A DNA stretch of 7,490 nucleotides from a virus (taxonomy: Duplodnaviria > Heunggongvirae > Uroviricota > Caudoviricetes). The notes below the pieces were generated by a model. That model had not been told where the DNA came from, did no database searches, and worked only from the letters and a program-made list of their open reading frames with translations. The DNA is taken from positions 1-7,490 of the IMG/VR virus record IMGVR_UViG_2541047502_000013; one strand, 5' to 3'. How positions within the stretch are numbered: position 1 is the stretch's first letter; each line of letters opens with the position of its first letter. Shown here piece after piece: positions 4,889 through 6,383 of this stretch. The position numbers and the translations under genes were made by a program.

Positions 4889-6383
4889 TCTTTCACACAT
4901 TATTGCCGCAGCATTCAATGAACCGCTGCTTCTGGAGCCCGCCTATGCGCGGGTTTTCTTTTGCGCGCTCGGGCGCGAGATGGGGGCAGCAAGTCTTTCG
5001 GTACCACAGCAGCAGGTACAGCTTGATGCTCCCGGAATGCTGGCTGAAACGGACGAGTACATGGCCGGAGGTAAACGACCGGCCCGTGTTTACCGGGTGG
5101 TGAACGGTATTGCTGTACTGCCGGTGACCGGCACGCTGGTGCACCGGCTGGGGGGTATGCGGCCATTTTCCGGAATGACAGGCTATGACGGCATTGTCGC
5201 CTGTCTTCAGCAGGCAATGGCGGATAGCCAGGTGCGGGGCGTACTGCTGGACATTGACAGTCCGGGCGGGCAGGCCGCCGGCGCGTTTGACTGCGCTGAC
5301 ATGATTTACCGCCTCCGTCAGCAGAAGCCGGTCTGGGCACTGTGCAATGACACGGCCTGTTCTGCAGCCATGCTGCTGGCGTCGGCCTGCTCCCGACGGC
5401 TGGTTACCCAGACATCCCGTATCGGCTCCATTGGCGTGATGATGAGCCATGTCAGCTATGCCGGTCATCTGGCGCAGGCCGGTGTGGATATCACGCTGAT
5501 TTACTCAGGGGCGCACAAGGTGGATGGCAATCAGTTTGAAGCCTTACCGGCAGAGGTTCGCCAGAACATGCAGCAGCGCATTGATGCGGCGCGCCGGATG
5601 TTTGCCGAAAAAGTGGCCATGTTTACCGGTCTGTCTGTTGATGCCGTCACGGGAACAGAGGCCGCCGTTTTTGAAGGTCAGTCCGGCATTGATGCCGGGC
5701 TGGCGGATGAATTAGTCAATGCGTCGGATGCCATCAGTGTGATGGCCACGGCGCTGAACAGTAATGTCAGAGGAGGCACTATGCCGCAATTAACTGCAAC
5801 GGAAGCCGCCGCGCAGGAGAACCAGCGAGTGATGGGGATCCTGACATGCCAGGAAGCGAAAGGACGTGAACAGCTTGCCACGATGCTGGCAGGACAACAG
5901 GGCATGAGCGTTGAACAGGCCCGGGCGATTCTGGCCGCGGCGGCACCGCAGCAGCCGGTGGCATCCACGCAGAGTGAAGCCGATCGCATTATGGCGTGTG
6001 AAGAAGCGAACGGTCGTGAACAACTGGCGGCAACGCTGGCGGCGATGCCGGAGATGACGGTGGAAAAAGCCCGCCCGATCCTGGCTGCTTCACCGCAGGC
6101 GGATGCCGGACCCTCACTCCGTGATCAGATCATGGCACTGGATGAGGCAAAAGGGGCTGAGGCGCAGGCTGAACAGCTGGCTGCCTGCCCGGGAATGACT
6201 GTGGAGAGCGCCCGGGCTGTGCTGGCTGCGGGATCAGGTAAGGCAGAACCGGTCTCTGCATCCACAACCGCCCTGTTTGAACGCATCATGGCGAACCATT
6301 CACCGGCTGCGGTACAGGGTGGCGTGCCACAGACGTCAGCAGACGGTGATGCGGACGTGAAAATGCTCATGGCCATGCCATGA
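4878..6383 (+). CDS. C: Prohead protease / minor capsid protein C (S49 SppA/ClpP-like peptidase, lambda gpC-like), 501 aa, apparent GTG start
   Basis: FNEPLLLEPAYARVFFCAL, NGIAVLPVTGTL, SGMTGYDGI, AGAFDCADMI, KPVWALCND, ASRRLVTQTSRIGSIGVMM, GVDITLIYSGAHKVDGN, EAAVFEGQSGIDAGLADELVN all parallel lambda gpC. RBS AGAGGAGA at 4861-4868; overlaps the portal 3' end by 11 bp. Confidence 0.93.
   Translation: MRRNLSHIIAAAFNEPLLLEPAYARVFFCALGREMGAASLSVPQQQVQLDAPGMLAETDEYMAGGKRPARVYRVVNGIAVLPVTGTLVHRLGGMRPFSGMTGYDGIVACLQQAMADSQVRGVLLDIDSPGGQAAGAFDCADMIYRLRQQKPVWALCNDTACSAAMLLASACSRRLVTQTSRIGSIGVMMSHVSYAGHLAQAGVDITLIYSGAHKVDGNQFEALPAEVRQNMQQRIDAARRMFAEKVAMFTGLSVDAVTGTEAAVFEGQSGIDAGLADELVNASDAISVMATALNSNVRGGTMPQLTATEAAAQENQRVMGILTCQEAKGREQLATMLAGQQGMSVEQARAILAAAAPQQPVASTQSEADRIMACEEANGREQLAATLAAMPEMTVEKARPILAASPQADAGPSLRDQIMALDEAKGAEAQAEQLAACPGMTVESARAVLAAGSGKAEPVSASTTALFERIMANHSPAAVQGGVPQTSADGDADVKMLMAMP
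5781..6383 (+). CDS. nu3: Nu3-like scaffolding protein, nested in-frame within the 3' part of C (internal start), ~200 aa
   Basis: Strong internal Shine-Dalgarno AGGAGG (5771-5776) 4 nt upstream of an in-frame ATG at 5781. Downstream sequence (RVMGILTCQEAKGREQLA...GMSVEQARAILAAA) parallels the lambda Nu3/C C-terminal scaffold region (SRIMGILNCEEAHGREEQA...GMTVKTARRILAAA). The nested arrangement is the known lambda C/Nu3 organisation. Confidence 0.6.
   Translation: MPQLTATEAAAQENQRVMGILTCQEAKGREQLATMLAGQQGMSVEQARAILAAAAPQQPVASTQSEADRIMACEEANGREQLAATLAAMPEMTVEKARPILAASPQADAGPSLRDQIMALDEAKGAEAQAEQLAACPGMTVESARAVLAAGSGKAEPVSASTTALFERIMANHSPAAVQGGVPQTSADGDADVKMLMAMP
5823..6300 (+). repeat. Three-and-a-fraction tandem in-frame repeats (~141-159 nt, ~47-53 aa each) of the scaffold motif R-[VI]-M-x(4-5)-E-A-x-G-R-E-Q-L-A-x(2)-L-A-x(3)-M-[ST]-V-E-x-A-R-x-[IV]-L-A-A
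   Basis: Repeat units begin near 5823, 5982, 6123 and (partial) 6279, with the conserved Met codons at 5832, 5991, 6132 and 6288. Nucleotide copies are diverged, so the duplication is old rather than an assembly artefact. Lambda, as recalled, has one full copy plus a partial one. Confidence 0.7.

Follow-up and report, generated by a model that had tools for sequence, protein, structure and literature searches.

We analyzed a 7,490-nucleotide stretch of viral DNA (positions 1 to 7,490 of IMG/VR record IMGVR_UViG_2541047502_000013; referred to below as the window), in which a 501-amino-acid (501-aa) open reading frame (ORF) starting at position 4878 appears to hold a second gene in the same frame. 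We read this locus as a gene pair 5/6 of the phage 21 type, the counterpart of lambda C/Nu3, in a defective lambdoid Escherichia coli prophage, with one frame giving two products, and we put the probability of this reading at about 0.9. The larger product, gp5, would be an S49 serine protease with a scaffold domain made up of its last 200 residues. The smaller product, gp6, would be an abundant 200-aa scaffolding protein initiated at an internal AGGAGG-N4-ATG at 5781, and its predicted layout is a short N-terminal segment, three modules separated by flexible linkers rich in Pro, Gln, and Ala, a tail helix, and a C-terminal motif. The earlier note on this DNA had likewise proposed that a protease gene of the lambda C/Nu3 type contains a nested scaffold gene and a triplicated module, and the records of phage 21 annotate the locus in this way. 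The 3-fold repeat and the nested start are already known, since both were annotated for phage 21 in GenBank in 1993, a verdict on prior knowledge that rests on GenBank features. The earlier note thus correctly rediscovered what had been public for three decades, and the finding has little weight as a discovery. The gene pair comprises the following features (helices are AlphaFold2 predictions in the numbering of the 200-aa protein).

4878..6383, + strand: gene 5, lambda C homologue of 501 aa, S49 prohead protease with C-terminal scaffold domain; GTG start
5106..5756, + strand: S49 (SppA-like) peptidase domain (residues 146-293 by Pfam; residues 77-290 by the SppA structures 3rst/4kwb)
5771..5776, + strand: Shine-Dalgarno (SD) sequence AGGAGG, 4 nucleotides (nt) before the internal ATG; ribosome-binding site (RBS) of gene 6 in M81255.1 and OL657228.1
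5781..6383, + strand: putative gene 6 nested in the same frame (Nu3 homologue), encoding a 200-aa scaffolding protein; same ATG as the phage 21 gene 6 coding sequence (CDS)
5832..5948, + strand: repeat unit 1, residues 319-357, 66.2 bits; Tri1 box at 5848-5951; predicted helices 6-21/30-37/44-53
5979..6101, + strand: repeat unit 2, residues 368-408, 70.7 bits; "Tri box" at 5988-6098; predicted helices 66-71/80-87/94-103
6117..6236, + strand: repeat unit 3, residues 414-453, 65.7 bits; Tri3 box at 6129-6242; predicted helices 113-118/127-134/141-151
6258..6299, + strand: tail helix TALFERIMANHS, predicted helix 160-173; lambda counterpart ALDRLMQ after the single unit
6351..6380, + strand: extreme C-terminal motif DVKMLMAMP (lambda VNDLLNTPV), alignment consensus DADxxxLMSxP; predicted helix 191-196

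The assignment of the 501-aa protein as a head maturation protease was supported by a match to PF01343 (Peptidase_S49; E=2.8e-35; 122 bits, cut-off 24.9) and by an end-to-end match to the head maturation protease profile phrog_53 (E=9.7e-228). Lambda C was 54% identical to it over 412 columns (BLASTP), and the CSA and HKVDGN segments are retained in that alignment.

The internal ATG occupies 5781-5783, and translation of 5781-6380 yields 200 aa. Together with AGGAGG, it forms the strongest SD-start pair within gene 5, and the pattern AGGAGG-N3-9-ATG occurs a single time in the window, at this very site. Moreover, AGGAGG-N4-ATG is conserved at homologous residues, namely, 309 in lambda and 2B8 and 302 in phage 21 and Gifsy-1. 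In all four, it sits at the junction between protease and scaffold, amid an otherwise variable linker. The start at 5781 is credible because the SD-ATG pair is conserved across lineages, and not because of the count of the motif; this conservation supports the proposed use of the start. The in-frame ATG behind AGGAGG and the nested ORF of about 200 aa proposed in the earlier note coincide with gene 6 of the phage 21 records, which begins at the same ATG. In lambda, the conserved SD-ATG lies at nt 5342 and gives a protein of 131 aa. This agrees with the statement in the earlier note that Nu3 is about 130 aa long with one copy of the repeat, since lambda C carries a single module. The RefSeq record of lambda (NC_001416) places nu3 at 5132-5737 (201 aa), and no SD-like sequence precedes that ATG. 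This looks like an annotation discrepancy between the RefSeq nu3 start and the conserved start at nt 5342.

The repeats were then assessed by local BLOSUM62 alignments, the scores of which were compared with those of composition-preserving shuffles (about 26 ± 5). The three units scored 101 (units 1 and 2), 87 (units 1 and 3), and 97 (units 2 and 3), corresponding to z values of 11.4 to 14.5, which indicates that they are homologous to each other. A profile of 42 positions, built from 17 units of the window protein and its relatives, matched the 501-aa protein at the three stretches listed above. The positions of these matches agree with the unit starts given in the earlier note, which had placed three full tandem copies in the C-terminal third of the gene. 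The module is about 40 to 45 aa long, and its three tandem copies are in frame with the ORF. Seven columns were invariant across the 17 units (A, G, E, A, L, M, A). The consensus of the Nu3 module is EAxGRExxAxxLAxxPGMTVxxAxxILAAAP, and three matches to the profiles phrog_8399 and phrog_8940 were obtained; indeed, phrog_8399 ("head scaffolding protein"), a single-copy profile, was matched by three separate stretches of the window protein. At the DNA level, the units were only 58 to 65% identical, with different codons used for more than half of the identical residues. Tandem Repeats Finder reported no repeat in 5600-6500, because the DNA copies are too diverged, and a DNA repeat search recovered only a 15-nt family at 5981, 6122, and 6278, encoding DRIMA, DQIMA, and ERIMA, respectively.

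The partial fourth copy that the earlier note had placed at 6279 did not hold up. What is repeated there is ERIMA, which alone was not significant as a repeat (z of about -0.2). In 18 of 60 full-length relatives, a strict pattern picked up a similar short motif behind the last unit, compared to 0.08 expected per 40 aa, and BLASTP aligned the lambda segment after the module, ALDRLM, with the EADRIM that opens window unit 2. A degenerate fourth repeat was rejected, since the same helix follows the module in single-copy relatives. The ERIMA segment thus belongs to a tail helix that is ancestral in this family and is not the remnant of a fourth duplication. The extreme C-terminal motif is likewise conserved in the family, and any function of it is inferred.

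We modeled the 200-aa protein with AlphaFold2, using 19 homologues. The confidence of the model was modest (predicted local distance difference test [pLDDT], 64.8; predicted template modeling score [pTM], 0.26). Three repeated three-helix modules were predicted with a pLDDT of about 70 to 77, along with low-confidence linkers, the tail helix, and a short C-terminal helix. One unit modeled alone reached a pLDDT of 79.6 and showed the same three helices. No model in Pfam-A or NCBIfam covered the scaffold module, which is included in PHROGs 8399, 8940, and 53 alone. A helix-hairpin-helix (HHH; PF00633) assignment was rejected: it was obtained for unit 3 only, at 15.3 bits and E=0.018 against the Pfam gathering cut-off of 24, and for one of the 17 units (E=0.0016).

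The closest known system is the gene pair 5/6 of phage 21 (M81255.1, OL657228.1), which is about 98.6% identical to the window in nucleotides over the whole gene and shares with it the GTG start, the internal ATG, the RBS, and three repeat boxes. Between 5700 and 6400, the two align without gaps and with about 10 substitutions. The record M81255.1, "Bacteriophage 21 head gene operon," annotates gene 5 and a nested gene 6 that begins at exactly the ATG at window position 5781. Within gene 6, it marks three repeat_region features (Tri1 box, Tri box, and Tri3 box), described there as "function unknown; putative," and these boxes overlap the three profile units of the window. In OL657228.1, the products are named "capsid protease/scaffolding protein" and "scaffolding protein." The phage 21 head-gene sequence is said to come from work by Smith and Feiss in Gene in 1993. 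The same OL657228.1 record marks two "CII binding sites" within gene 6, on the minus strand at 2409-2422 and 2643-2656. These correspond to window positions of about 5786-5799 and about 6020-6033, and their basis is the pattern ttgynnnnnnttgy only; they are probably chance matches.

Lambda C/Nu3 shares with the window the gene position, the S49 domain, AGGAGG-N4-ATG at the junction, the module, the tail helix, and the C-terminal motif. It differs in that lambda has one module (C residues 362 to 400), preceded in the 131-aa product by an N-terminal segment of about 50 aa, whereas gene 6 of the window would encode three modules and an N-terminal segment of 17 aa within 200 aa. The gpC homologues of Gifsy-1-type Salmonella prophages also carry three modules, and Gifsy-1 has the same internal SD-ATG, but its scaffold part and that of the window share only about 54% identity. 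In the Gifsy-1 record, reference is made to the Swiss-Prot entry [quoted passage not shown] The scaffolds P22 gp8 and phi29 gp7 are small, helical, transient internal scaffolds with flexible regions and are functional analogues; unlike gene 6, they are not nested in a protease gene. No similarity to P22-type scaffolds, with their C-terminal helix-turn-helix domain for coat binding, or to those of the phi29 type was detected in a PDB sequence search or by Foldseek (E<=0.001; 200-aa model and single unit).

In a further step, we investigated how widespread the scaffold is and how its copy number varies. The 603-nt scaffold region was present at a coverage of at least 80% in 1864 of 5426 complete E. 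coli genomes, in up to five copies per genome, and in those genomes it was annotated solely as "S49 family peptidase." The exact 501-aa protein was found on at least 1000 contigs, and the names given to it include "Capsid assembly protein of prophage CP-933R" and [quoted passage not shown] Among 1.84 billion representatives, the unit profile detected 966 proteins (E<=0.001). When only the full-length proteins (at least 380 aa) among the best 150 of these 966 were considered, 57 carried one unit and one carried three. Related loci in viral contigs were 98 to 100% identical only and useless for estimating diversity, and most hits of a homologue search with the 200-aa protein were gene fragments.

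The repeat number, which the earlier note had proposed to compare across related prophages, ranges from one to four modules among the relatives, with one copy by far the most common. Multicopy forms occur in enterobacterial prophages. Three copies are found in E. coli (phage 21 type), in Salmonella (Gifsy-1; P0029), and in the metagenomic protein P0076. Four copies are found in the E. coli variant P0027, in which units 2 to 4 are mutually 81 to 86% identical, which points to a recent amplification. The two-copy forms P0021 and P0016, and also P0020 and P0063, are in-frame deletion forms. Window units 1, 2, and 3 were 84, 76, and 61% identical to the same-numbered units of P0029, compared to 50 to 61% for their own paralogues. 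Since the window units are closest to the same-numbered P0029 units, the triplication predates the split between the E. coli and Salmonella proteins. The notion of an old and maintained expansion, which the earlier note had drawn from the divergence of the DNA repeats, is supported by this comparison, with occasional recent gains and losses. As a separate observation, P0048 (270 aa, from a sequencing-run assembly) combines an N-terminal DPPY motif typical of DNA methyltransferases with three scaffold units at the C terminus; it looks like a chimera, most probably due to a rearrangement or an assembly artifact.

The window as a whole is a lambdoid phage head operon. Around the gene pair, the ORF list gives the following genes.

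21-1217, - strand: transposase of the IS110 family
1523-3109: remnant of the terminase large-subunit gene
3093-3299: W-like gene
3296-4888: portal gene
6420-6767: decoration-protein gene
6825-7091: major capsid gene, first ~84 codons only

The order portal, C, decoration, and capsid matches that of the lambdoid head operon (identical O157:H7 locus in RefSeq; phage 21 and lambda maps), and the 3' end of the portal gene is overlapped by 11 nt by the GTG start of gene 5 at 4878. Unlike phage 21, the prophage around the window copy is defective; its capsid gene is truncated, and its terminase gene contains an insertion sequence (IS). The stretch 1445-7490 is 100% identical to an E. coli O157:H7 prophage that carries a frameshift in its terminase gene and a shortened major capsid gene fused to a tail gene. 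In the window, ISEc20, an IS110-family element (1-1468), interrupts the terminase large-subunit gene. The O157:H7 copies of the prophage are without an IS at the terminase site, and their match begins at 1445; two bovine E. coli genomes (SMN013SH2 and OkiPb01679) have the IS-terminase junction in common, at 99.9% identity. The capsid gene ends after about 84 codons (…KPKHEF) and is fused to the interior of a tail gene (6825-7091 and 7076-7490), the two pieces being named "major capsid protein, incomplete" and "phage tail protein" in RefSeq. The prophage is defective because the deletion removes the remaining head-completion genes. With the capsid gene truncated and the terminase gene disrupted, the scaffold gene is a relic here.

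Several observations weigh against the gene pair 5/6 reading. The copy of the scaffold gene in the window is intact, but the prophage cannot build heads or capsids. No solved structure covers the scaffold part, and only the protease domain was matched in the PDB sequence search. Foldseek searches with the 200-aa model against PDB and BFVD returned nothing at E<=0.001 and no informative match, the best viral one being "Prohead protease [Salmonella phage 37]" at E=0.46; the single-unit model also gave nothing in PDB at E<=0.001. Lambda Nu3 is reportedly intrinsically disordered, a finding ascribed to Medina et al. in 2011, so the predicted helices may form on binding only. Finally, the RBS of gene 6 is labeled "putative" in M81255.1, and the number of AGGAGG-N3-9-ATG motifs is within chance (0.56 expected per window, with at least one in 84 of 200 shuffles). 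This chance expectation also favors a reading in which the full-length protease-scaffold fusion is the sole product, as is said of P2 gpO, with AGGAGG-ATG as an unused by-product of the coding of Gly-Gly-x-Met; the single "S49 family peptidase" CDS shown in E. coli RefSeq annotation fits it as well. We consider such a fusion-only arrangement improbable, since four lineages share the SD sequence, the spacer, and the ATG at homologous positions and the nested gene is annotated in the phage 21 records. Lambda Nu3 is, moreover, said to be a separate product of the C frame, according to work by Shaw and Murialdo in 1980, which would also count against it.

Two other explanations concern the repeats. 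One could take them for a compositional artifact of a low-complexity region rich in Ala, Gln, and Glu, given that the region is Ala-rich, that no tandem repeat was reported at the DNA level, and that the fourth "copy" was not significant. This idea is refuted by the shuffles, which preserve composition and still leave z values of 11 to 14, by the position-specific conservation of the seven invariant columns, and by the 966 proteins found with the profile, typically once each and near the C terminus of S49 proteins; its probability is negligible. The earlier note had also suggested that the longer, multivalent scaffold could change capsid assembly or size determination, in other words that the triplication alters the capsid geometry relative to lambda, for example toward a larger triangulation (T) number. 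The general idea that the length of a scaffold can set capsid size is all that speaks for it. Complete phages with a three-copy scaffold have genomes of 42.9 to 54.4 kb, with Gifsy-1 at 48.5 kb, as compared to 48.5 kb for lambda, and the capsid and decoration genes are homologues of lambda E and D. An effect on capsid size was thus rejected on the basis of genome sizes and is very unlikely.

Under the reading as a gene pair 5/6, the mechanism would follow that of lambda. By this analogy, gp6, the major capsid protein, and the portal protein would coassemble into a procapsid, gp5 would be taken in because its C-terminal modules are shared with gp6, and gp5 would then degrade gp6 and itself ahead of DNA packaging. 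Published lambda interactions include C-Nu3, Nu3-Nu3, Nu3-B, and Nu3-E, and C may degrade Nu3. The module is probably a binding element, because it is the sole part of the scaffold that is conserved across distant relatives. Most likely, the three modules provide three equivalent contact sites for one partner, possibly the capsid protein on its inner face, another scaffold subunit, or a portal subunit. Compared to the monovalent Nu3, gp6 would then be multivalent (trivalent), with capsid size unchanged. If the module contacts the capsid protein or the portal, the range of one to four copies could form a natural valency series that tunes the avidity between scaffold and shell or how many scaffold molecules each procapsid contains, a tentative idea to which we assign a rather low probability.

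Two consequences follow for the family. The nested gene at its conserved start is missing from the RefSeq annotation of about one-third of the complete E. coli genomes and from that of lambda. Moreover, the natural variation from one to four copies may be used to find the binding target of the module, the only conserved part of Nu3-type scaffolds.

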